Positions 4,830 through 45,666 of a stretch of 64,000 nt of DNA are shown here, one piece after another. The translations under genes and the position numbers were made by a program. Source of the stretch: Minisyncoccia bacterium. Its GTDB lineage: Bacteria; Patescibacteriota; Minisyncoccia; Phycocordibacterales; JAKFXT01. The notes beneath the pieces are model-generated. The model worked only from the letters and a program-made list of their open reading frames with translations. It made no database searches and was not told the origin of the DNA. Position 1 is the stretch's first letter; each line of letters starts with the position of its first letter. Where the stretch lies: assembly GCA_041485465.1 (NCBI GenBank), contig JBGPJO010000001.1, positions 29,017 through 93,016 on the forward strand, given 5' to 3'.

Positions 4830-5246
4830 TTACTTCTTCAGTTCTTCCGTTGCTTCCGCTTCCACTTCTTTTGTTATACCATCCTCAACTACCTCTTCCT
4901 CAGCTTTTATTTCTTCGGAAGTGCTTTGTATCACTCCGGTCTCCCCCGCTTTCTCTCCTTCTTCTTTCTTCGGAGGAGATTTTCTCGGTAACACGTTGAT
5001 TTTCTTGCCGGAAATTATTTTTTGACTAATAAGAAGATTGTGGACGGTGTCAGAAACTTTTGCCCCTTTCCCCATCCATGTTTTGATCTTATCGGCATTG
5101 AATTCTGATTTATTGCTTCTCGGATCGTACGAGCCAAGGATATCCAAAAATCGCCCACTCTTTGTCGAGTTAGTCGATTCGGTAAGCACGAGCCGGAATG
5201 TCGGTTCATGCGTTCTTCCAACGCGCTGTAGTCTGATCATAAGCAT
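4830..5246 (-). CDS. rpsP: 30S ribosomal protein S16 with K/E-rich C-terminal extension
   Basis: MLMIRLQRVGRTHEPTFRLVLTE...GSYDPRS matches the S16 N-terminus. Start trimmed from the longer ORF to MLMIRLQ. Confidence 0.8.
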   Translation of the reverse strand: MLMIRLQRVGRTHEPTFRLVLTESTNSTKSGRFLDILGSYDPRSNKSEFNADKIKTWMGKGAKVSDTVHNLLISQKIISGKKINVLPRKSPPKKEEGEKAGETGVIQSTSEEIKAEEEVVEDGITKEVEAEATEELKK

Positions 5247-5341
5247 GCGCAAGAGCGTAACAGAAGAGCCGTCTCCCGTCAATATTATTTTCATAAAGCT
5301 TTTTAGTTGGAAAGGTTTTCCATGCGTGGTAACGTAGGACG

Positions 5342-7303
5342 ATGCAAAAAAGAAGAGAGCGAAACGAAAGAAAAGAAGACGCCGTATACCATTCGGATTT
5401 AAAGACATATGAAGGCACCATCAGCATCACCTCGCGTGGTGTTGGGTACGTCTCAACGGAGAGCTTGAAGGAGGATATTGAGGTCCCTACAGGGCAAACG
5501 GGTTTTGCCCTCAATCGCGATACCGTCCTAATCTCCGTCTTCCCTGGAAGACGCGTGGGGCGACTTCAGGGCAAGATTCTTAAGGTAATCAAACGGGATC
5601 GGACCCGTTTTGTCGGTACTGCCTCTCTTGAAAACGGAAAAACATTCATTGTTCCGGACAATAAGAGAATACACGTTGATTTTTTGCCTCAAGAGAATGT
5701 TACTCCTGGGGAAAAGGTGCTTTTTGAAATCGCTTCATGGGAAAAACCAAAAGATGCGCCCCTAGCAAAGATTATTAAGGTGATCGGCAAAAAGGGAGTG
5801 AACGACGTTGAAATGGAAGCGATTGTGCTTGAGCGCGGTTTCAACGCAACCTTCGAGCCTGAACTAGTGAGTGAGGCGGAAGCAATTCGGGAAAAGGCGA
5901 AAAAAGAATTCGAGGAAGAAATACGGAAACGAAGGGACCTGCGGGACCTGAAGACCTGCACCATTGATCCTGAAGATGCCAAAGACTTCGACGACGCGTT
6001 GTCATTTCAGAAGCTTCCAAACGGAAATTTTGAAATAGGCATCCACATTGCCGATGTCTCCCACTACATCCGCCCGAAGACCATGCTTGATACGGAAGCC
6101 CAAAAACGTGGTGTTTCAATCTACCTTGTCGATCGAACTATCCCGATGCTTCCGGAGGCGCTTTCAAACGACTTATGTAGTTTAAATCCGAATGAAGACA
6201 AATTCGCTTTTTCCGCAATCTTTGAAATGGATACGAAAGGAGTGGTCTTGAAGAGATGGCTCGGTAAATCGGTCATACGCTCCGATAAACGTTTTTCTTA
6301 CGAGGAAGCTCAGAGCGTGCTTGAAAGCGGGGAAGGCGTGTTTAGAGAAGAGTTAGCAACACTTAACATGCTTGCAAAACAATTAATGGCAGAACGCTCC
6401 AGAGAAGGGGCGATATCCTTCGAACAGGACGAGGTCAAGTTTGAGCTTGATCACGAGGGCTTTCCGGTGCGGGTTTTCCGTAAAGTACGAAAGGATGCCC
6501 ACAAGCTCATTGAGGAATTTATGCTTCTCGCCAATCGAGAAGTGGCAACGTTCGTCACCAATCTCCATAAACAGAAAAAAATCAATCCTCTTTTTGTTTA
6601 TCGGATCCACGACTATCCTGACCCCGAAAAAATTACCGAGCTCGGCATATTCCTCAAAGCAGTCGGTTATGAACTTGAAACTAAGAAAGGTCAGGTGCGG
6701 GCGAAAGATTTAAATGCCTTATTTAAGCATATCGAAGGCGAGGCCGAAGAAGGAATCATCAAAACTGCCGCCATCCGCTCGATGGCAAAAGCCATTTATT
6801 CGACAAAAAATATCGGCCACTTTGGTTTGGGTTTCGAATACTATACCCATTTCACTTCACCGATCAGACGCTATGCGGACGTTTTGGTTCACCGCCTGCT
6901 TTACTCTTATCTCAACAAAGAAAGCGTTTCCGAAAAAGAATTCGCTTTTTACGAGAGGATGAGTAGAGAAGTGACCGAATGCGAAATAAGAGCGGCGGGA
7001 GCTGAGCGTGATTCGATCAAATTGAAACAAGTTGAATACATGGCAAAGAGGGTTGGAGAAGTATTCGACGGTATCATTTCGGGAGTGACCGACTGGGGGA
7101 TGTATGTTGAAGAAAAAGAAACGAAATGCGAAGGGATGATAAAAGTCCGTGATCTTAGCAGCGATTATTTCACCCTTGACCAAAAGAATTATTGCCTTGT
7201 TGGTGAGAAAACGAAGAAAAAATATTCTCTGGGAGATTCAATACGATTTAAGGTGATTGCGGCTGACCCCGAACGGAAGACGCTTGATTATGCCCTTGTT
7301 TAA
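5342..7303 (+). CDS. rnr: Ribonuclease R (RNB-family 3'-5' exoribonuclease)
   Basis: Cold-shock/S1-like N-terminus and RNB catalytic region, including the TIDPEDAKDFDDAL motif. Confidence 0.85.
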   Translation: MQKRRERNERKEDAVYHSDLKTYEGTISITSRGVGYVSTESLKEDIEVPTGQTGFALNRDTVLISVFPGRRVGRLQGKILKVIKRDRTRFVGTASLENGKTFIVPDNKRIHVDFLPQENVTPGEKVLFEIASWEKPKDAPLAKIIKVIGKKGVNDVEMEAIVLERGFNATFEPELVSEAEAIREKAKKEFEEEIRKRRDLRDLKTCTIDPEDAKDFDDALSFQKLPNGNFEIGIHIADVSHYIRPKTMLDTEAQKRGVSIYLVDRTIPMLPEALSNDLCSLNPNEDKFAFSAIFEMDTKGVVLKRWLGKSVIRSDKRFSYEEAQSVLESGEGVFREELATLNMLAKQLMAERSREGAISFEQDEVKFELDHEGFPVRVFRKVRKDAHKLIEEFMLLANREVATFVTNLHKQKKINPLFVYRIHDYPDPEKITELGIFLKAVGYELETKKGQVRAKDLNALFKHIEGEAEEGIIKTAAIRSMAKAIYSTKNIGHFGLGFEYYTHFTSPIRRYADVLVHRLLYSYLNKESVSEKEFAFYERMSREVTECEIRAAGAERDSIKLKQVEYMAKRVGEVFDGIISGVTDWGMYVEEKETKCEGMIKVRDLSSDYFTLDQKNYCLVGEKTKKKYSLGDSIRFKVIAADPERKTLDYALV

Positions 7304-17429: not shown

Positions 17430-19904
17430 TTATACCATCTCGTTTATTTTCAAAGAATAAGAATCTCTCAGAGATTCTTTCTCTACAAGATCGAGTGTTT
17501 TTGAAAAAGCGAGTTTTGCCGCCATGTGACTTGAAGAATAGCTTTCATCAAATGCCCCAACTAAAATCCCTATCACCTTTTCAAGCATCTCGTTTCTCCA
17601 GCTAGAGACGGCAGTGACTGCGTAATCATCGGCTCCTGGTTCACGCTCGATGCGAAAGCGATAGACTCGGTCAAGCTCGAACGCAACCGCTTTCACAAAA
17701 TCAGAAACGGCATGTCCCTGATGATTGAGTATCCGGAGGAAATTGAATATTTTTTTATGATCATTGTCAGCAATCCAGCGGATAAAAAGCGGCACCAGAG
17801 AAACGTAGGTTGAGAAAAGAATGGCCCGCGCCTTTTTACCATCAAGCAGAAGATAATTCCCTTCCAAGGTTGGGTACCATTCTTTAGCAAGCGTAATTAT
17901 CTGATTAAGTATCTTGTTTACATTTTGAGGGTTCCCTTCGGAAGCGGCTAGAACGATTTCAATTGCATCTTCCACAATAAGAGCCCCCTCTGCCCGCGCC
18001 ATGTCCTCAAGATTTTCTTTCACCTCTTCAGTTGAAGCCGCGTCCTTTAAAATTGGTAATTTTACATCTTCTAAAATGGGTTCCGTGACTTCGTTTTCAG
18101 CCCTATCCGCAGCTTCAGAAAAAGAAACCTGCCCAAAAGAGGAGTGTGTTTCATTGGTTTTTATTTTAGGAATTCTTTTTGTTATGAGAGTAAAAGAAAA
18201 TAGACGCCGATAGATCTGAAGATACGCAAGTCCAACTGAAAAAACCATGAGCATCAAGAGAAAGAGAAGCGTCTTAAAAACATCCCCTACTCCTGTGTAT
18301 GGTACTTGACTCAAGTAAATGGCCGCAAAAGCCGCAAGGGGGCTCGTTGTCGCGCGTGTCAAAACAACGGTCGGAGCGAAAGGTCCCCCGCCGCCACCCC
18401 CGCCGCCGCCACAATTAATTACACAACCACCTCCGCCTCCGCCTCCGCCGCCACCCTCCGTAACACTAATGGCCAGGTTCTTTTGATCAAAGCCGCACTG
18501 ATTAGCCGCCTTAATGGTTATGGTAAAACTACCGGTCGTTGTCGGCGTGCCGGAGAGTAGATTCGTTGAAGTTGAAAATGTGAGCCACGAGGGCAGATTC
18601 GTCACATCAAGCGTGTCGAGAGTACCTGAGGTGGTAAGGGTATACGAGAACGGCTGATTAACCACAACAGAGGCGAAGAGGCCGCTTGTGATTTGAGGCA
18701 CCGGGGCTGCTGAACAGCCTCCGCCACCACCCCCTTCCGTAATCGTTATGACAAGAGTTTTTTGATCAAAGCCGCAACTGTTTGACGCATTGAGCGTGAT
18801 AGTGAATGTGCCGGTCGTTGTAGGTGTTCCGGAAATAATCAGAGTTGAAGTCGAAAATGTGAGCCACGGAGGAAGGTTGGTTGCCAAAAACGTACTGACC
18901 GTCCCCGTTGCCGTCATTGTGTAACTGAAAGGAACTCCAACGGTACCGGATGCTGAAAGAGGGCCTGTAATCGAAGGCGCGGGTATTTGACACTGTCCTG
19001 CGGTAATAATTATGACAAGAGGAGCTGCTCCCGAACCACATTGATTTTGGGCGCTAATCGTTACCGTCGATGTTCCTACCGAAGTTGGTATTCCGGAAAT
19101 CACTCCCGTTGAAGTGGCGAGATGTAAACCGGGTGGCAAATTAAGTACCCCAAAAGAAGCCGCTGTATTGCTTGAAGTAATGCTATAGCTAAACGGCTGA
19201 CCAACAACTCCTTCGGCAAGAGAAGCACTGGTGATAATCGGCGCTCCGGGAATACATATAGCTCCCTTTACCGCGATGACAATCGTCATGTGGCAATGGC
19301 CACAACCATTTTGAGAAGTTAAAGCAACAGTTGAAGTGCCCATTTCAATCGGAGTTCCGGAAATGACGAGACCTGATAGATTGAGTCCTTGAGGAAGGCC
19401 GCTTGCGTTAACCGTGACCGAGTTAGTGCTGGTCGCAAGTTCTATAGTATAGCTGAAGGGCACTCCGATCGTTGCTTCAAGAGAAACATTTGTAAATTTA
19501 AAAATCGGCAAAACGCATTGACTGCTACTTGAACTTGAGGAACTGCTGGAACTGCTACTTGAACTCGAACCTTCATTTGAGCTCAAAGAAGAGTCCGAAG
19601 AATTACTACCACTTAAAGAAGAGCTCGAGTCCGAAGTTGAACTTGAAGGACTTGATGTGCTGCTATCGCCGGGAGCTGAAGCCACAGCGGTATCTGAAAC
19701 GCTTTCCGCGGACCCACTAGTAGCTGTAGAGGAAGACGATGCTATAGAAGATGTGGAAGCATCAGCCGCTTCCGCAATGACATGATAGAGGTTTGCCTCA
19801 AGATAACTATTGCCGGTAAACAAAAAAATCCCAAACAAAAGAGCCGAAAGACCGATCGCCGGTTTTAAATATTTTTTAGATTTTTTATTTTTTTCTCTGT
19901 TCAT
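17430..19904 (-). CDS. Cell-surface type I membrane protein with four putative Ig-like repeats
   Basis: Signal peptide, then a Ser-rich low-complexity stretch (~19520-19757). Four repeats of LPxGLxLsxxtGxISGTP...C follow, with poly-Gly linkers (18385-18459). Then a single TM helix (~18200-18340) and a ~290-aa C-terminal domain of unknown function. Confidence 0.6.
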   Translation of the reverse strand: MNREKNKKSKKYLKPAIGLSALLFGIFLFTGNSYLEANLYHVIAEAADASTSSIASSSSTATSGSAESVSDTAVASAPGDSSTSSPSSSTSDSSSSLSGSNSSDSSLSSNEGSSSSSSSSSSSSSSSSQCVLPIFKFTNVSLEATIGVPFSYTIELATSTNSVTVNASGLPQGLNLSGLVISGTPIEMGTSTVALTSQNGCGHCHMTIVIAVKGAICIPGAPIITSASLAEGVVGQPFSYSITSSNTAASFGVLNLPPGLHLATSTGVISGIPTSVGTSTVTISAQNQCGSGAAPLVIIITAGQCQIPAPSITGPLSASGTVGVPFSYTMTATGTVSTFLATNLPPWLTFSTSTLIISGTPTTTGTFTITLNASNSCGFDQKTLVITITEGGGGGGCSAAPVPQITSGLFASVVVNQPFSYTLTTSGTLDTLDVTNLPSWLTFSTSTNLLSGTPTTTGSFTITIKAANQCGFDQKNLAISVTEGGGGGGGGGGCVINCGGGGGGGGGPFAPTVVLTRATTSPLAAFAAIYLSQVPYTGVGDVFKTLLFLLMLMVFSVGLAYLQIYRRLFSFTLITKRIPKIKTNETHSSFGQVSFSEAADRAENEVTEPILEDVKLPILKDAASTEEVKENLEDMARAEGALIVEDAIEIVLAASEGNPQNVNKILNQIITLAKEWYPTLEGNYLLLDGKKARAILFSTYVSLVPLFIRWIADNDHKKIFNFLRILNHQGHAVSDFVKAVAFELDRVYRFRIEREPGADDYAVTAVSSWRNEMLEKVIGILVGAFDESYSSSHMAAKLAFSKTLDLVEKESLRDSYSLKINEMV

Positions 19905-24104: not shown

Positions 24105-26489
24105 CTAGCGTACTTGCCAGCCATTTTTATGGTTCAAATTTTCCGTAATGAGAGCCATAATTTCATTCACTTCAGCGTCAGAAAGTGTTTTATCGTGAGA
24201 TTGAAAAACGAGGCGAAATGCATAAGAAATTTTTCTTTCTTTTTTGAACTGATCGAAAAGCATGGTGTGAACAAGAAGTTTCCCTGCCTGTTTTTCAATC
24301 GCCGTAAGAACATCCCCCGAGGAAATAGTTTCCGGAACAAATACCGCTATGTCGCGTAATAGATATGGATATGGTGAAAGCGAAGTATATTTTTTTTGTA
24401 TAGAAGGTTTTAAAGAATCATATGCACTAACTTCCGGTAAATTCTTGATTATCTCTTCAAGGTCGCACTCGGCAACAGAGACATCAATATCTCCTGGTTT
24501 AATTTCTTTTTTGCTGCCGAGATAATCCAGTAGTTTTTGGAATTCTTCCGCGAGTCTCTCTTTTGTCTCGAGAGTGGCTTTTTCTTTTGATTTCACTCTA
24601 TTGATTCCAAAAGCAATTGAGATTAGGGGCTCTTCCGTATCCAAACTCTTAAAAATTTCTCCTATTTCAAAAATTTTAACCTCACCGGTATCATAGAGAT
24701 CAAGTAATGGTGCATACCATGTATTTTTCTGAAGACTCTCTTTGAGGCCGTCCGTGAGATTTTTTCTTAAATATTTTTTATCAGAAGCAAGCGGATTCTC
24801 AATCTCGAGAGTTCCACTGTTTCGCATTGCATACGTATAGACTTCGGAAAATCCTCTCTCCTGAAAAAAGTGCTTGATTTTATTTATATAAAAGAAGTTT
24901 TTATCAATCTTGAGTAAGGTCTCCTTTTTTTGAGAAGCTGAAGTAATTTTTTCGAGGCCGTATATTCTCCCAATTTCTTCTATAAGATCGGCGCTTCCTT
25001 CAAGATCAAGCCTCTCAAAAGGAGCCGTAACCACAAATCGCCGTTCATCATCCTGAAGAATCCGGCGATAGCTGACAACCTCCTTAAAATCAGGGCTCTC
25101 CGAAAGTGCCTCTTCTAAGACTTTTCCACGGCTTTCTTTCCCTGAGGCATGAATGACATTCCCTTGCCCCAGATAGATGCCGACGTGGCTCACCCCGGGC
25201 TCAAAATTTTTACCCTTCATAAAATAAAGTGTTTTGGTGTGCACCGTACCATTGCCGCGCGAGAACACCAGATCTCCTGCCTTAAGGTCAGCTTCCTGTA
25301 TTTCCTCTCCATAAAAAAGCTGGTCGATTGAAATCCGCGGAATTGAGATTCCGGCTTGGGCAAATAGGTACGCAGTAAAGCTTGAGCAATCGAAAGCTCT
25401 TGGCGCGTCGTAGGAAATGCTTGCGCCATAAGAATATGCGCTGCCCACTAATGATTTCCCGAGAGAAAGTACTTTTTCATAGGGCGCTATTACCTCGTAA
25501 GGCAGATGAAGCCTTTTTAAAATCTTCTCGACATCCTTCTTTGTAAGGCTCTCGCCAAGGAGCGAGTTGATTTCCTTAAGAGAAACCCCCGTTTTGTAAG
25601 GATTTCGTGGGCGCGGGTAATAATCAGTGTAGCCTTCAAGATTCCCTCCGGCAATTTCGAGTATAAGTTTTACAACGGCGGGAAGCACAAAACGGGGAAG
25701 CTCGGGAGCAATACCGTTTTCAAAACGAACCGACGCATCAGTACGCAATCGAAGAAATTTTGAGGTAAGACGAATACTTTTGGCGTCAAAATTGGCTGCC
25801 TCAAGAATAATGTTTTTGGTATTCTCGGTTATTTCCGCTTCTTTACCTCCTTTAATTCCACCCATACCAAGAATTTTTTGAACATCTTTATCCTCGGTAA
25901 CAAGAATGGTTTCTTTCGGTAAATCATAGATTTTGTCATCAAGTGTTTCAAGAGTTTCCCCCGCGCCACTTTCCCGAACAGAAATTTTTACTGTGCCCTC
26001 CTTAGTACTTAATTTATCAAAATCAAAAACATGAAGCGGTTGCCCCAAATCGAACATCGCGTAGTTCGTTATGTCCACAATGTTATTGATCGATTTTTGG
26101 CCAAGTGCTTCAAGGCGTGCTTGTAGCCATTGAGGAGATGGACCGATTTTGACGTTTTTTATAAGAGCAGTACTAAACCGCGTAACTTTTTTCGTCTTTA
26201 CGGAAACCAAAACGGATGTGGTTTTTGGCTTAAGCCCGTTTTCTTTTTCAAAGGGATCTTTAGAAAGCGGAATATCAAGAATCGCTGAAATTTCTTTTGC
26301 AATACCATAGTGTGACAGACAATCATGGGCTCTATTAGGAAGTACTTTAACATCGAGCACTTCGTCCTTTCCGGTTTTCTCAATCCCCTCAATTTCAAAG
26401 GCATGCATCGTGAGCGCTTCGGCAATTTTTTCGCCTGACGGCAGGGAGTCTTTAAAATATGTTTGGAGCCATTCCCGTGAAATTTTCAT
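24105..26489 (-). CDS. pheT: Phenylalanyl-tRNA synthetase beta subunit with an NlpC/P60 domain inserted in B5 and no B2 tRNA-binding domain
   Basis: B1 goes straight to B3/4 (SPQWLQARLEALGQKSINNIVDITNYAMFDLGQPLHVFD). The B5 domain is split by residues ~335-482, which read GSAYSYGAS...FDCSSFTAYLFAQAGISIPRISIDQ...GDLVFS...SHVGIYLGQGNVIHA (NlpC/P60 Cys/His signature). B6/7 and the FDX-ACB C-terminus are present. Confidence 0.85.
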   Translation of the reverse strand: MKISREWLQTYFKDSLPSGEKIAEALTMHAFEIEGIEKTGKDEVLDVKVLPNRAHDCLSHYGIAKEISAILDIPLSKDPFEKENGLKPKTTSVLVSVKTKKVTRFSTALIKNVKIGPSPQWLQARLEALGQKSINNIVDITNYAMFDLGQPLHVFDFDKLSTKEGTVKISVRESGAGETLETLDDKIYDLPKETILVTEDKDVQKILGMGGIKGGKEAEITENTKNIILEAANFDAKSIRLTSKFLRLRTDASVRFENGIAPELPRFVLPAVVKLILEIAGGNLEGYTDYYPRPRNPYKTGVSLKEINSLLGESLTKKDVEKILKRLHLPYEVIAPYEKVLSLGKSLVGSAYSYGASISYDAPRAFDCSSFTAYLFAQAGISIPRISIDQLFYGEEIQEADLKAGDLVFSRGNGTVHTKTLYFMKGKNFEPGVSHVGIYLGQGNVIHASGKESRGKVLEEALSESPDFKEVVSYRRILQDDERRFVVTAPFERLDLEGSADLIEEIGRIYGLEKITSASQKKETLLKIDKNFFYINKIKHFFQERGFSEVYTYAMRNSGTLEIENPLASDKKYLRKNLTDGLKESLQKNTWYAPLLDLYDTGEVKIFEIGEIFKSLDTEEPLISIAFGINRVKSKEKATLETKERLAEEFQKLLDYLGSKKEIKPGDIDVSVAECDLEEIIKNLPEVSAYDSLKPSIQKKYTSLSPYPYLLRDIAVFVPETISSGDVLTAIEKQAGKLLVHTMLFDQFKKERKISYAFRLVFQSHDKTLSDAEVNEIMALITENLNHKNGWQVR

Positions 26490-38921: not shown

Positions 38922-39281
38922 TTAGTGAAAAGTAGGGAGAAAAGCAAAACCGCTCACTATGTTAAACAGAACGTATAAGGAAAAAAGGTAAACAAATATT
39001 TTAAAAATCTGAAATGTACGGCTAGTTCTTGCGGCGGAAAAATTCTTAACTATGCGCATAATATAGATTGGTGAAAGTAGTGATGGCACAGTCGTTGGCC
39101 AGAGGAGAAGTCCCGTGAGCGCTATCCAGCCGAGGGCCACACCCTCATCAGATGAATTGCCTGGAAATAGATGCCCTAGAAGAATTCTAAGCAGAAGCGC
39201 CGCTACAATAATGACTGACGCGAGATTTAAGTAGAACACCAACTTCTCTACCTTACTTGAAAAATTCTTTGATTTATTCAT
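38922..39281 (-). CDS. Hypothetical membrane protein inserted between the two transketolase subunit genes
   Basis: 119 aa with three predicted TM helices. Confidence 0.4.
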   Translation of the reverse strand: MNKSKNFSSKVEKLVFYLNLASVIIVAALLLRILLGHLFPGNSSDEGVALGWIALTGLLLWPTTVPSLLSPIYIMRIVKNFSAARTSRTFQIFKIFVYLFSLYVLFNIVSGFAFLPTFH

Positions 39282-41171: not shown

Positions 41172-43271
41172 ATGGCAATATTTCGAAAGAACTTTTTTCC
41201 TTTTGCCGCCCTTCTTCTTATAATTGGGTTTTTGGTGTATCTTGGAGCGTATTCCGATTTAAATCCTCATAAGTATGTCGAGGCTGGATTTTCGAATAAC
41301 CTCTCCGGCTATGCTTGGAGCGACAATATTGGCTGGATTAGTTTTAATTGCACTGATACAAACTCTTGTGGGACAGCGGATTATGGAGTAAATGTAGACC
41401 AGGCCACCGGTCTTCTTTCCGGTTACGCCTGGAGCGATAACGTCGGCTGGGTTACTTTCAATCAAAGTGATCTTGCGGGCTGTCCCGCCTCTCCCTGCAA
41501 AGCCCAACTTTCAAATGGAAATCTCTCTGGCTGGGCAAAAGTGATTGCCGCGGATGCAACGTCATCAATTCCTGTCCAAGCAACGACAACGGTTTTTTCT
41601 GTAGCCGGAACACAAACGTATGTCGTGCCCGTAGGTGTTTCTACTATCACGGTTAAATCGTGGGGTGCGGGAGGCGGTGGAGGAAAAAATTCCGGAGGCA
41701 GTAACGGGGGAAACGGTGGTGGAGGCGGATATACACAGGCTGACATTTCTGTCTCAGCCGGAGAATCTCTTACTGTTATTGTCGGAGGGGGTGGAGGAAT
41801 ACCGGGAAGTACGGCGGGTGGCGGGGGTGGTGGTTCGTCGGCGGTAAAGCGTGTTTCTAATTTTCTTATTCAAACGGGTGGCGGGGGTGGAGGAGGAGGG
41901 ACTTGCGGCTGTGAAAATGGAGGTGCGGGTGGAGCGGGCGGGGGAACAACCGGAGCGGGAGGAGTGAGTGCTTCAGGAAATGCCGGAGCGGGAGGAACAC
42001 AGTTTGCGGGAGGTGTGGGAGGTACTGGTCATTCCGGCCAAACAGACGGGGCGGCTGGGTTACTGAACGCAGGTGGGGGCGGTGGTAATGGATCAGGAAG
42101 CGGCACAGGAGGTGGAGGCGTGGCAGGAACACTAAACGGAGGGGCCGGAGGGAATGGAAGTTTTGATGCTGGCGGAGGTGGTGGAGGGGGAGGTTATTAC
42201 GGTGGAGGCGGAGGGGAAGACGGATTCTTGGGCGCAGGTGGAGGCGGAGGCGGATCAGGATTTGTCACAGGAGTGAACACTTCCCTTATCGTAGGTAGTG
42301 GAAAGACCCCAGCAAACAATGCCGATCCTGATTATGGCGGAACCGCCGGAGTAGGCGGCAACGGAGGTGGACCCGTGACAGCGGGAAACACGGGAAGAGT
42401 AGTAATAATCGTGAATGCTTCATCTCCGGGAAGCGGAGGCGCAGCCGGCGGATGGAATGGCTGGATAAGTTTGAAAGGTTCAAATGAAAGTTCAAGTTAT
42501 GGAGTTAGTCTTGCCGGCAACGCACTTCAGGGTTATGCCTGGGATGCATCCGATGTTACAGGGCAAGCCATCGGTATCGGCTGGATTAATTTCAACCCTA
42601 TTTCGTCCGGTGGCGGAGGCCTCCCACCCGCGGGAACCCCTGTTGGCGGTGTCTTCCTCTCTTCTTCAACTTCACCCTCTGTCACTTTAAGCGCCCAAGA
42701 CTCATTCGTTCCCCAAGGAGGATCAACGTTACTTTCTTGGACATCTCAAAACGTTACCTCCTGCTTGGCAAGTTTGGGAACAAGCGGATGGCCCGGAAGC
42801 AAAGCACTTTCAGGTTCTCAAGGCGTCGGCCCCATAAACGTCCAGACCCAGTACCAACTTGATTGTTCGGGGGTTTTCGGCTCAACAACAGCAAGCGTTA
42901 CTGTTGGTATAATTCCACCGGATTTTTCTCTTAATAAATCGAATGATCTTACGATTTCATTTACCGGTGGTAATCTGACTTCAAACCAGACAACAATCAC
43001 TGTCATTCCTCAAAATAGTTTTGCGGGAACAGTCGCCCTCTCGGCAGGCCCTGCAACCATAGGTGGAGTCCCGGTAAGCTATAATTTCTCAAATGGCTCC
43101 CTTACTTCTTCTCAATATGGAACCGGCGCAACCTTTCAAATCATCGCGAGCCAGGCGATTCCGAAAGGAACGTATGTCGTCACTGTCACCGGCACGAGTG
43201 GCGCTATATCCCACCAAATCAATATCAACTTAAATTCTTCAGGCGCAAATCCCATATTCCAGGAATTTTAA
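41172..43271 (+). CDS. Secreted glycine-rich protein with three GYAWSDNIGWISFN repeats
   Basis: N-terminal TM/signal, three copies of sGYAWSdNiGWisFN, then ~300 aa that are more than 50% Gly, and a C-terminal non-Gly domain. Confidence 0.6.
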   Translation: MAIFRKNFFPFAALLLIIGFLVYLGAYSDLNPHKYVEAGFSNNLSGYAWSDNIGWISFNCTDTNSCGTADYGVNVDQATGLLSGYAWSDNVGWVTFNQSDLAGCPASPCKAQLSNGNLSGWAKVIAADATSSIPVQATTTVFSVAGTQTYVVPVGVSTITVKSWGAGGGGGKNSGGSNGGNGGGGGYTQADISVSAGESLTVIVGGGGGIPGSTAGGGGGGSSAVKRVSNFLIQTGGGGGGGGTCGCENGGAGGAGGGTTGAGGVSASGNAGAGGTQFAGGVGGTGHSGQTDGAAGLLNAGGGGGNGSGSGTGGGGVAGTLNGGAGGNGSFDAGGGGGGGGYYGGGGGEDGFLGAGGGGGGSGFVTGVNTSLIVGSGKTPANNADPDYGGTAGVGGNGGGPVTAGNTGRVVIIVNASSPGSGGAAGGWNGWISLKGSNESSSYGVSLAGNALQGYAWDASDVTGQAIGIGWINFNPISSGGGGLPPAGTPVGGVFLSSSTSPSVTLSAQDSFVPQGGSTLLSWTSQNVTSCLASLGTSGWPGSKALSGSQGVGPINVQTQYQLDCSGVFGSTTASVTVGIIPPDFSLNKSNDLTISFTGGNLTSNQTTITVIPQNSFAGTVALSAGPATIGGVPVSYNFSNGSLTSSQYGTGATFQIIASQAIPKGTYVVTVTGTSGAISHQININLNSSGANPIFQEF

Positions 43272-43279
43272 TTACTTTC

Positions 43280-44164
43280 ATGACTTCTTCATCTTTATCG
43301 AGCGCATTTAAAAAAATAAAACCGATTCTTGTCGGCCTTGTTATCGTCATCGGCATTTCTTACGCTCAAGCCGCATGGGTGGGGCCTACGGCAACACCTC
43401 CCGGAGGAAATACTGCCGCGCCGATCAATGTCGGCAGCCTCTTTCAGCAGAAAACCGGTGACTTGTGGGCTAAGAGCATGGGAACAGATAACGGTTACTG
43501 CATCGGAACAAGTTGTATTACGGCGTGGCCTTCAGGAGGAGGGCTAGGGCTTAAGAGCGTTCAAATTTTTACCTCTAATGGGACATGGACCAAGCCTGCC
43601 GGGATTACTAAAATTCAAATGATTGTTGTGGGCGGTGGAGGTGGTGGTGGCACTGTCGGCGCCGCCTCTACCGCTGAAGGCGGTGGAGGCGGGGGTGGGG
43701 GTGGCACATGCATGAAATTGATAAATGTATCAGGAATTACCAGTGTGCCCGTCACAGTTGGCGGTGGAGGCGCTGCTGCTCCTGTTCCCGGAACTCAAGG
43801 AAATGGCACGGCTGGTGGAACAAGCAGTTTCGGAACATATTGTTCCGCAACGGGCGGTGGGGGTGGTATCGGTGGGGGTGGTAATTCTCCTGGCGGTCTT
43901 GGTGGCATCGCCTCCGGCGGCGATCTGAATATTGGCGGGAATGATAGCGACTATGGTATTTATGAAGGTGTTGCTGGACACGGCTACGGTGGTCATGGTG
44001 GCGCTTCGGTCTATGGTGGCGGTGGCTATGGCGGTATAGGTAACGGCACAAGTGTTGCTCAACCGGGTCGCCCTTATGGAGGTGGAGGAGGCGGAGGCAA
44101 TGGTTCCGCCGGTGGGGCAAGAGGTGCAGCTGGCGTTGTCTTTGTCTGGGAGTATGGTAACTAG
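43280..44164 (+). CDS. Secreted glycine-rich protein, paralog 1 (conserved N-terminal module)
   Basis: Signal peptide ending ...SYAQA. Conserved module AWVGPTATPPGGNTAAPINVGSLFQQKTGDLWAKSMGTDNGYCIGTSCITAWP, then TWTKPAGITKIQMIVVGGGGGGG and a Gly-rich body. Confidence 0.6.
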   Translation: MTSSSLSSAFKKIKPILVGLVIVIGISYAQAAWVGPTATPPGGNTAAPINVGSLFQQKTGDLWAKSMGTDNGYCIGTSCITAWPSGGGLGLKSVQIFTSNGTWTKPAGITKIQMIVVGGGGGGGTVGAASTAEGGGGGGGGGTCMKLINVSGITSVPVTVGGGGAAAPVPGTQGNGTAGGTSSFGTYCSATGGGGGIGGGGNSPGGLGGIASGGDLNIGGNDSDYGIYEGVAGHGYGGHGGASVYGGGGYGGIGNGTSVAQPGRPYGGGGGGGNGSAGGARGAAGVVFVWEYGN

Positions 44165-44214
44165 CTAACTTAAATAAAATTCGTTAGCTTAAAAAATTAT
44201 TTAACTTAATTATT

Positions 44215-44877
44215 ATGATGCAAAAACCTCTCAACACTATAAAAGTCCTCTTTCTCGGGCTTCTCCTCGCCCTTGGCATCTCATATGTTCAAGCCACATG
44301 GGTTGGTCCTACAGCAACGCCGCCGGGAAACAACACAACCGCACCAGTGAATATCGGCAGTCTCTTCCAGCAAAAGACGGGAGATTTCTGGGCAAAGAGT
44401 GTGGGCTCTGATAATGGATTTTGTATCGGTATTTCATGCATCACCGGCTGGCCGCAGAGCTGTCCTGCCGGGCAAGCAATTAGTGCGATTAGTACAACGG
44501 GAGCGGTCACCTGTGTGAGTGCGGGTGGAGGAGGTGGAGGAGGCCTTGCGACGAGCAGTCTTCCTATGGCAAAGGCGTGGGGGTATGTGAAAATAACCTC
44601 AGGGGTCCCGACACTCCAAAGTCCGTCATTTAATGTGGCAAGCATAGCGGATACTGCCGTCGGGAAGCTTACGGTAAATCTAATAACTCCCTTTTCTTCA
44701 GCAAATTATGTGGTAGTTGCTAATGCCTGGAGGGTAAACGGCGTATATATGAACCCCACGATCTTGAGTGCATCCTCATTTACGATTTATAGTTTTATAA
44801 CCGGGAGCAATAATGCAAGCGTAGGCAATACACTTGTTGATCCTGATTTTTATTTTTTCGTAGTTTTTGGGCAATAA
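44215..44877 (+). CDS. Secreted protein, paralog 2 of the same N-terminal module
   Basis: Same signal peptide and WVGPTATPPGNNTTAPVNIGSLFQQKTGDFWAKS...CIGISCITGWPQSCPAGQAI module. Different C-terminus. Confidence 0.6.
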   Translation: MMQKPLNTIKVLFLGLLLALGISYVQATWVGPTATPPGNNTTAPVNIGSLFQQKTGDFWAKSVGSDNGFCIGISCITGWPQSCPAGQAISAISTTGAVTCVSAGGGGGGGLATSSLPMAKAWGYVKITSGVPTLQSPSFNVASIADTAVGKLTVNLITPFSSANYVVVANAWRVNGVYMNPTILSASSFTIYSFITGSNNASVGNTLVDPDFYFFVVFGQ

Positions 44878-44883
44878 TCAAAG

Positions 44884-45666
44884 ATGAAGAATTATCTCAA
44901 TACACTAAAAATTCTCACTCTTGGACTTCTCCTCGCCCTTGGCATCTCATATGTTCAAGCCGCATGGGTTGGTCCTACAGCAACGCCGCCGGGAAACAAC
45001 ACAACCGCACCAGTGAATATCGGCAGTCTCTTCCAGCAGAAGAGTGGTGACTTGTGGGCACGGTCAATGGGAACCGACAACGGATTTTGTATTGGAAAAA
45101 GTTGTGTGACCGGCTGGCCCCAGAGCTGTCCTTCCGGGCAAGCGATTAACGAAATTAGCACCAATGGAGCGGTTACATGTGTTGCAGCAAGCGGAGGGAC
45201 GGGGGGATCGCTTGCCGGAAAATCCTGCCCTTCAGGTCAATACGTGAGTGGAGTGGACGCAGTCGGTAATCTTATCTGCGGAACTCCATTGGGCGGAGGA
45301 AGTACTAACGTTACATTGGTTAATGGCGCGCACACAGGAGTGGATTGTGTGGCAATCGGCGGCAGTGTCTCAACTATCGGCACTAATACATCTGTCTGTC
45401 GCGCTAGTGGGGCGTTATGTCCTTCAGGTTGGACAAAGTACCAAAACTGGTCCACCGGATCTTCGAACACGTGTAACGGGAATATTTGCACGACGAGCCC
45501 GGGCCCGCAGGGCACCTCTTGCACGGTATCTGGTTGGGCATGGGCAAACCAGACACCTTTAAGTTGTACCTATCATAGATATGCTGATAGCGGCTTAGGA
45601 GGTTGTGTCATTCTCAGTCAAAATCAAACATGCGTCGGACCTACCATAGAAGTCGGCTGTTACTAA
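44884..45666 (+). CDS. Secreted Cys-rich protein, paralog 3 of the same N-terminal module
   Basis: The DNA of its 5' ~290 nt is nearly identical to 44215-44500. The C-terminus is Cys/Thr/Ser/Gly-rich. Confidence 0.6.
   Translation: MKNYLNTLKILTLGLLLALGISYVQAAWVGPTATPPGNNTTAPVNIGSLFQQKSGDLWARSMGTDNGFCIGKSCVTGWPQSCPSGQAINEISTNGAVTCVAASGGTGGSLAGKSCPSGQYVSGVDAVGNLICGTPLGGGSTNVTLVNGAHTGVDCVAIGGSVSTIGTNTSVCRASGALCPSGWTKYQNWSTGSSNTCNGNICTTSPGPQGTSCTVSGWAWANQTPLSCTYHRYADSGLGGCVILSQNQTCVGPTIEVGCY

Follow-up and report, generated by a model that had tools for sequence, protein, structure and literature searches.

What do three neighbouring genes do whose products begin alike and end differently? This question is raised by positions 43280–45666 of a DNA stretch of 64,000 nucleotides from a Minisyncoccia bacterium (contig JBGPJO010000001.1 of assembly GCA_041485465.1; the whole stretch is called the window below). 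Here the proteins P1, P2 and P3 are encoded in tandem on the + strand, directly behind a gene for a protein of 699 amino acids which carries Trp-rich hairpin repeats, here called YAWS repeats, and which we refer to as the YAWS partner. We suggest that P1–P3 are chromosomally encoded surface fibres which are exported by the Sec pathway, carry exchangeable binding tips and belong to a type widespread in the Patescibacteria, the bacteria of the candidate phyla radiation (CPR). We put the probability of this reading at roughly 55%.

P1 (294 amino acids, 43280–44164), P2 (220 amino acids, 44215–44877) and P3 (260 amino acids, 44884–45666) are open reading frames exactly where an earlier inspection of the bare DNA, the sequence-only reading, had placed them. 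Each protein starts with a basic n-region; about 18 hydrophobic residues and an A/V-x-A site come next, and the common head follows. Sec signal peptide cleavage is expected after this site, that is, at AQA|AW in P1, VQA|TW in P2 and VQA|AW in P3. These calls were made from sequence features, together with the site statistics of the family given below. The putative signal peptides would comprise residues 1–31 of P1 (43280–43372), 1–27 of P2 (44215–44295) and 1–26 of P3 (44884–44961). The head follows as residues 32–84 of P1 (AWVGPTATPPGGNTAAPINVGSLFQQKTGDLW ... CIGTSCITAWP, 43373–43531), 28–80 of P2 and 27–79 of P3, and its common sequence is (A/T)WVGPTATPPGxNTxAPxNxGSLFQQKxGDxWAxSxGxDNGxCIGxSCxTxWP. 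In P2 and P3 a Cys-bracketed hairpin extension is appended (SCPAGQAISAISTTGAVTC, residues 81–101 of P2; SCPSGQAINEISTNGAVTC, residues 80–100 of P3), head and extension together occupying 44296–44517 and 44962–45183, respectively.

The mature heads (53–55 amino acids) are 81–87% identical to one another (BLASTP, E 2e-33 to 2e-36), and the three proteins score 175–211 bits against a local head profile. A six-frame profile scan found no fourth head copy in the window. Thus, the three proteins are tandem paralogs with a common N-terminal module, as had been claimed, and their C-termini are indeed unrelated (E > 0.05 for the tails against each other, BLASTP). The common module is, however, shorter than the approximately 95 residues initially assigned to all three. 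The three-way common part comprises the signal peptide and 53 mature residues and ends at WP (residue 84 of P1); the extension to about 95 residues, QSCPxGQAI...GAVTCV, is common to P2 and P3 only. P1 is Gly-rich as described (31% Gly, with the GVVFVWEY end completed to GVVFVWEYGN), whereas the more than 20 Cys attributed to P3 have to be corrected to 16, four in the head and extension and 12 in the tail. What points to disulfides in these proteins is the spacing of the Cys residues (C-x4-C in the head, C-x16-C in the hairpin) and their even counts.

How far does the head extend beyond this locus? An exhaustive profile search of 1.84 billion representatives, counted as clusters at 50% identity, yielded 7,356 clusters at E ≤ 1e-3 and 1,423 at E ≤ 1e-10. 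A word-indexed homolog search is misleading for the head, with 16 relatives only against these 7,356 clusters. The head defines one of the larger uncharacterised families of the Patescibacteria (at least 7,356 clusters), and the locus in the window is an ordinary member of it; proteins of the window type top the family ranking (P0017, P0019). The best 150 family proteins are 81–705 amino acids long, and in almost all of them the match lies at about residues 20–85, right behind the signal peptide. Among 127 aligned members P31, N39, P43, Q51 and K53 (numbering of P3) are invariant, and W28 is present in 126. Ala is found at position -1 of the cleavage site in 120 of the 127 and Val or Ala at -3 in 101. 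These statistics describe a classical signal-peptidase-I site, after whose cleavage the mature protein would begin with W or A-W. The family signature is A/V-x-A, then directly W-x-G-P-T-x-x-P-P-x-x-N-x-x-A-P-x-N-x-G-x-x-x-Q-x-K-x-G, and P1–P3 keep every invariant position. The C-x4-C...W loop is present in about half of the aligned members. A variant was seen at 5204–5881 of locus L072, where the motif KAWKAPTANPPGDN comes after a Pro-rich spacer of about 45 residues behind the signal peptide and precedes a Cys-rich tail; the motif hence need not sit at the mature N-terminus.

The sequence-only reading had not recognised the module as a described family. The head has no match in Pfam, NCBIfam, PADLOC, the PDB sequences or, even at E ≤ 10, the PHROGs. 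The 699 amino acid protein has none in Pfam and NCBIfam, and none of the four proteins of the cluster matches a PADLOC model at E ≤ 0.01. As head and partner are in none of Pfam, NCBIfam, PHROGs and PADLOC, these libraries provide no family or domain assignment. Full-text searches of the literature, subscription-only literature excluded, also gave no description of the head or of the YAWS partner.

Scanning one genome per species, we obtained 64 head loci, 54 of which have a taxonomic label. Patescibacteria make up 51 of these 54, with the labels Saccharibacteria, Kaiser-, Yonath-, Taylor-, Nomura-, Lipton- and Moranbacteria, Paceibacterota and Minisyncoccia. The other three loci (L016, L019, L050) are from metagenome-assembled genomes labelled Hyphomicrobium, Alphaproteobacteria (a 964-kb contig) and Bdellovibrionales. 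They may stem from mislabelled or contaminated bins or may reflect a genuine occurrence outside the Patescibacteria. Tandem arrays of head genes on the same strand are common, with seven genes in L005, five in L024 and four each in L002 and L017.

The tails are what distinguishes the three proteins. The tail of P1 (43532–44164) is a glycine-rich domain. Residues 101–289 of P1 match Gly_rich_2 of Pfam (PF21722; E 9e-11, 42.6 bits against a gathering cut-off of 24.3), which is found neither in P2 nor in P3, and residues 81–292 match phrog_863 (5e-44) as well as four tail-fibre PHROGs. P0023 and P0033 are built like P1, with a Gly-rich domain behind the head. A tblastn search of phages with P1 gave no match, probably owing to the low-complexity filter. 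The tail of P2 (44518–44877) is made of a poly-Gly linker and a beta-rich part of the tail-fibre tip type; it matches the tail-fibre families phrog_11355 (4.5e-9) and phrog_3484 (7e-6) and weakly, in tblastn, a tail-fibre gene of an Octadecabacter virus (E 4e-3). The tail of P3 (45184–45666) contains a second CPSGQ hairpin and a Cys-rich domain of about 115 amino acids which ends in EVGCY. It matches neither Pfam nor PHROG profiles, and the indexed homolog search, misleading here as well, also returned nothing. By local BLAST and alignment, a P3-type domain (CPxGW...NWS...C...ESC...EVGCY-COOH) is present in at least eight other head-family proteins from other genomes, at 31–43% identity and with E-values down to 1e-13; the Cys residues, CPxGW and the terminal GC(Y) are conserved.

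A similar picture emerges for the family. Among the 127 members the tails carry Peptidase_S74 (15 proteins), Gly_rich_2 (8) and Gp34_trimer (3), more rarely Collagen (2), Gp10_C (2), Collar (2) and a T7 tail domain (1); Shufflon_N is found on one member (3.5e-17). The commonest PHROGs of the tails are tail fibre, long-tail-fibre distal subunit and baseplate wedge, with E-values down to 4e-39. Peptidase_S74, the 'chaperone of endosialidase', drives trimer folding; none of P1–P3 carries it. Judged by these matches, the tails of the head family are recurrent cassettes, mostly modules of phage tail fibres.

The second constant element of the locus is the YAWS partner, encoded by an open reading frame at 41172–43271 (+) which ends 8 nt upstream of P1. 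The protein consists of an N-terminal hydrophobic helix, the Trp-rich hairpin repeats with a Gly-rich insert, a C-terminal Ig-like (immunoglobulin-like) region and a terminal tag, NPIFQEF. The Trp-rich repeats read GYAWSDNIGWISF twice, then GWNGWISL, then GYAW...IGWINF. They are predicted to form an eight-stranded beta-barrel, the first half of which would be made by repeats 1 and 2 (GYAWSDNIGWISF, GYAWSDNVGWVTF; 41307–41459, +) and the second (GWNGWISLKG ... GYAWDASDVTGQAIGIGWINF; 42455–42595, +) by the stretch which contains copies 3 and 4 of the DNA repeat family D5. The family consensus for the second half is GWDGWISL ... GYAWGSDVVGWIxF. Between the halves lies the Gly-rich domain (41541–42470, +), which is 38% identical to the P1 tail and aligns with its Gly_rich_2 domain at non-Gly landmarks (FT/S..GT.T.P.G...I.V..WG.GGGG, V.VGGGG). 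Two homologs have an insertion at the same site (P0230, with a precomputed PF21722 match, and P0242). Since the insert is related to the P1 tail, one binding-type module serves in both partner families. About 20 of 28 family members share a C-terminal tag of the form P-x-[FWY]-x-E-[FILM]-COOH (PIFQEF at 43251–43268, +, in the window), which came to light when the family was compared. The tag might direct sorting or docking; its form matches no recognised signal. ChW repeats (PF07538) were considered for the YAWS repeats and rejected, as none of 70 members matches at E ≤ 0.01 and the 699 amino acid protein does not at E ≤ 1; faint precomputed matches exist on 2 of 115 YAWS homologs.

The link to the upstream gene, which the sequence-only reading had raised, holds across genomes. 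When all open reading frames of the 64 loci were clustered, YAWS genes adjoined head genes in 35 loci, 39 of 40 genes lying on the same strand, and YAWS was the only recurrent neighbour of head genes besides housekeeping genes. In the loci with a strict YAWS motif (n = 28) the median distance is 74 nt and 24 are within 500 nt, in either gene order. In the reverse test, loci seeded from four YAWS proteins contained head genes in three cases out of four: in L069 and in L070/L071 the YAWS gene directly follows a head gene, in L072 it has a divergent head variant upstream, and the neighbour in L068 is unclear. Some loci also have genes of type IV pili in the vicinity. PilM, PilO and PilB/MshEN-T2SSE are encoded within 3–5 kb of the YAWS and head pair in L070 (9269–12564) and L071 (4652–7947), PilM is nearby in L068 (719–1840), and a PilB-like gene occurs in six of the 64 head loci. 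The head gene of L070/L071 matches Shufflon_N (PF04917), the constant region of PilV.

We suggest that the system works in these following steps. Each paralog would be made as a Sec precursor and cut by signal peptidase I after A/V-x-A, so that (A)W-x-G-P-T would lie at the N-terminus of the mature protein or close beside it. The head, that is, a Pro-rich stretch, the invariant N...P.N...Q.K.G motif and the small C-x4-C...W loop, could then serve as a constant proximal stem which starts the shaft of a probably oligomeric fibre. It would also keep the protein attached to the cell, and the most likely docking site is the beta-barrel of the co-encoded YAWS partner, which has an N-terminal membrane helix. 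A plausible interface for this docking is the Pro-rich segment, prone to form a polyproline II helix, against a Trp-rich surface. The tails would be exchangeable distal modules: in P1 a glycine-rich domain of the kind that forms the receptor-binding tip of gp24 of phage Pam3, in P2 a small beta-rich tail-fibre tip and in P3 a putative disulfide-rich knob which recurs in the family. They might bind different ligands, presumably surface structures of host or partner cells, and several cassettes would provide several specificities. Finally, the constant head may double as a recombination substrate, by which cassettes could be duplicated, deleted or swapped.

The last step can be examined at the DNA level. 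The head is present as a 197 nt repeat in three copies, and P2 and P3 share 300 nt at 82% identity. Over about 115 nt the heads of P2 and P3 differ at no more than two positions, synonymous sites included, and P1 has diverged further. A contig from a JGI metagenome (L001, 3300053058) lacks 669 bp, the P2 tail and the P3 head, and otherwise matches the window at 100% identity. The junction yields a protein with the signal peptide of P2 and the body of P3 (P0017), and the crossover site is an identical stretch of 39 nt (44257–44295 = 44926–44964, +). Two other assemblies (L066, L067) are identical to the window and stop in or just after the P2 head. As assemblies break at this very place, L001 may represent a true deletion variant or, alternatively, a collapse in assembly. 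Variation by a diversity-generating retroelement or of the shufflon type was considered and rejected, as supporting repeats and enzymes are missing: between 40800 and 46500 the head and Gly-codon repeats are the only repeats, one weak inverted repeat of 23 nt and no recombinase were found, all cassettes lie on one strand, and no reverse transcriptase is among the annotated open reading frames of the window, not every one of which was scanned.

Several observations weigh against our reading. Inside the long fibres P0046, P0053 and P0064 one finds the C..C..WP loop and, behind it, the second half of the head again, about 20 of the best 150 proteins have two to three matched head stretches each, and in a few family proteins the motif is 50–100 residues away from the signal peptide. 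Internal recurrence and remote positions speak more for a shaft element than for an anchor reserved to the N-terminus, and the head may thus be an element that initiates the shaft rather than an anchor. The AlphaFold 2 (AF2) monomer model of P2, computed from a 29-row head alignment, has a pLDDT (predicted local distance difference test) of 59 and shows the head as low-confidence coil; the only confident mature part is the hairpin 87–102 (pLDDT about 80). In 29 of the 64 loci there is no YAWS gene within the fetched flank. The match of the P1-type tail profile to the Pam3 gp24 tail fibre (7yfw/7ypx, residues 79–266 of 280) is weak (E 0.044), and in L001 the junction may have arisen when the repeat collapsed during assembly.

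Which other explanations have to be considered? The sequence-only reading had offered pilin-like subunits, surface-layer (S-layer) or fibre components and polymorphic toxins. Of these the fibre component fits best, because the tails of P1, P2 and many relatives match phage tail-fibre families. These very matches, strong as they are in P1 (5e-44) and in many relatives, could also be taken to mean that the genes are the remnant or cargo of a prophage, a tailocin or a contractile injection system and encode true tail fibres with a baseplate-docking head, the more so as tail-fibre loci typically combine a constant N-terminus with variable C-termini. We consider such an origin very improbable and have rejected it. 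All three proteins have Sec-type signal peptides; the 64-kb window contains no capsid, tail, baseplate or sheath gene, no integrase and no lysis gene, and is core chromosome, with genes of core metabolism and translation on the flanks; the head was found neither on IMG/VR contigs nor in 50,697 phage genomes, nor in the PHROGs; and the sole conserved neighbour is a non-viral barrel protein, YAWS, without a viral structural analogue. The tandem layout with constant N- and variable C-termini also resembles polymorphic toxin loci, and the Patescibacteria are parasitic on other cells. The head could accordingly be a secretion or delivery domain for toxic or enzymatic tails of secreted, bacteriocin-like effectors. 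Yet no toxin, nuclease, peptidase or lipase domain was detected in any tail with Pfam, NCBIfam and PHROG profiles, the tails match structural fibre modules instead, and the intergenic gaps of 8 nt (699 amino acid gene/P1), 50 nt (P1/P2) and 6 nt (P2/P3) leave no room for immunity genes. Effectors are therefore hardly to be expected here.

Structures of the cell envelope come closer to surface fibres. P1–P3 could belong to an envelope layer or appendage, for example an S-layer-like coat, a sheath or a non-pilin filament, which is assembled with the YAWS barrel and whose tails serve surface variation or envelope architecture. The export signal, the very large family with several copies per genome and the conserved membrane-anchored partner would all suit such a structure, as would the recurrence of head elements within long fibres in the manner of structural repeats and the pil genes close to L070/L071, L068 and six of the 64 loci. 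However, the tails are of kinds that serve as receptor-binding tips in phages, proteins which are small (220–294 amino acids) and differ within one locus would be unusual subunits of a lattice or filament, and no genes of type IV pili were seen in the window. We regard an envelope structure as rather unlikely. It is much harder to see P1–P3 as minor pilins or tip adhesins of type IV pili, analogous to the PilV shufflon proteins. They do have an N-terminal hydrophobic helix, one family member matches Shufflon_N, and the L070/L071 head gene carries PF04917 3 kb from PilM/PilO/PilB. But the class III signal is missing: instead of a prepilin-peptidase site (G|F/M...E5) the consensus is the signal-peptidase-I site A-x-A|W. 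Moreover, the cassettes lie on one strand without significant inverted repeats or a recombinase, and linkage to type IV pili is seen in a minority of loci, the window not being among them. Thus, in our view Sec-exported surface fibres with exchangeable tips account best for the locus.

The genomic setting is that of an ordinary chromosome. The 699 amino acid gene, P1, P2 and P3 form a cluster of four genes on the + strand between divergently oriented housekeeping genes, with a ribulose-phosphate epimerase and a split transketolase upstream (- strand) and a pseudouridine synthase and an ABC (ATP-binding cassette) transporter downstream. Elsewhere the window encodes rpoB, RNase R, SMC, dnaE, a class II aminoacyl-tRNA synthetase, gyrB, pheS/pheT, rpsB, the peptide-chain release factor gene prfA and an aldolase. 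Scans for promoters and terminators gave no signal above shuffled background. Identical proteins are also present on the NCBI assembly GCA_041490985.1 and in two JGI metagenomes. Three further features of the window were noted. A hydrophobic open reading frame of 119 amino acids lies between the halves of the split transketolase (38922–39281, -) and was called as a gene in an independent assembly (L066, 751–1110). The phenylalanyl-tRNA synthetase beta chain (794 amino acids, 24105–26489, -) has an NlpC/P60 peptidase domain (PF00877, residues 349–453, E 4e-18) inserted between its B3_4 and B5 domains, which is an unusual fusion. Finally, a protein of 824 amino acids (17430–19904, -) with three He_PIG Ig-like repeats (E 8e-32) and a weak internalin-K-like domain is probably another surface protein.

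Little is known about how the ultrasmall Patescibacteria find and hold their hosts; described so far are type IV pili and, from cultivated Saccharibacteria, a few adhesins. The head family and the YAWS partner are both undescribed, and they could bear on the host choice of CPR bacteria. Defining the two families would provide a concrete, testable candidate for the host-recognition machinery of these bacteria and a handle for linking uncultivated epibionts to their hosts. One may go a step further, tentatively and against somewhat unfavourable odds, and speculate that the Patescibacteria possess a host-range apparatus which resembles that of phages and by which they recognise the cells they live on as parasites. 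Fibre-tip modules on a Sec-exported head would be plugged into a membrane-anchored YAWS barrel, and tandem cassettes together with recombination at the head would change or broaden the host range. If this were true, the hosts of uncultivated CPR bacteria might be predictable from phages with similar fibre tips.

How does the locus compare with known systems? Anchoring by sortase is not indicated, as LPXTG, a hydrophobic segment and a basic tail are absent from the C-termini (P1 ...VVFVWEYGN, P2 ...FFVVFGQ, P3 ...TIEVGCY). For the YAWS partner only, the eight-stranded soluble beta-barrels of hemophilin HphA, of the lobes of TbpB, HpuA and fHbp, and of the avidins offer themselves for comparison. 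They have, however, no sequence similarity to YAWS (4–17% identity), the predicted YAWS barrel is built of four Trp-rich hairpin repeats, and the lineage in which YAWS occurs is presumed to be monoderm and has neither Slam nor lipoprotein export.

Polymorphic toxin and contact-dependent inhibition loci share with the head family the tandem or modular genes, the conserved N-terminus with divergent C-termini and, as we suggest for the head family, the swap of tips by recombination at the constant part, but the tips of the head family appear to be structural binding modules, without toxin domains or immunity genes. The PilV shufflon adhesins of the thin pili of IncI plasmids (Shufflon_N) likewise combine a constant N-terminus with alternative C-terminal segments, which are thought to set the binding specificity. 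There, the segments are exchanged through site-specific inversion by Rci, whereas the head genes are separate tandem genes which would be varied by homologous recombination; the head proteins also have no prepilin signal and the window no pilus genes.

The closest likeness is to phage tail fibres such as gp24 of Pam3 (PDB 7yfw/7ypx) and gp38 of Salmonella phage S16. In Pam3 gp24 N-terminal helices dock on the baseplate, and recognition of the host receptor is ascribed, as in S16 gp38, to the TNF-like (tumour necrosis factor-like) and glycine-rich domains (PMC9608196). As in the head family, a constant proximal part is combined with an exchangeable distal binding domain. The glycine-rich domain of the P1 tail is of the same general kind, the P2 tail matches tail-fibre PHROGs while the P3 tail has no such match, and relatives carry Peptidase_S74, Gp34_trimer, Gp10_C, Collar and T7-tail modules. 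In place of the baseplate-docking helix or domain, however, the head-family proteins have a Sec signal peptide and a head which is absent from the phage databases, and their genes are chromosomal, placed among housekeeping genes without a fibre chaperone or virion genes nearby and paired with a YAWS barrel. The locus works like a tail-fibre or receptor-binding-protein locus but, as a virion component, is not a member of that class.

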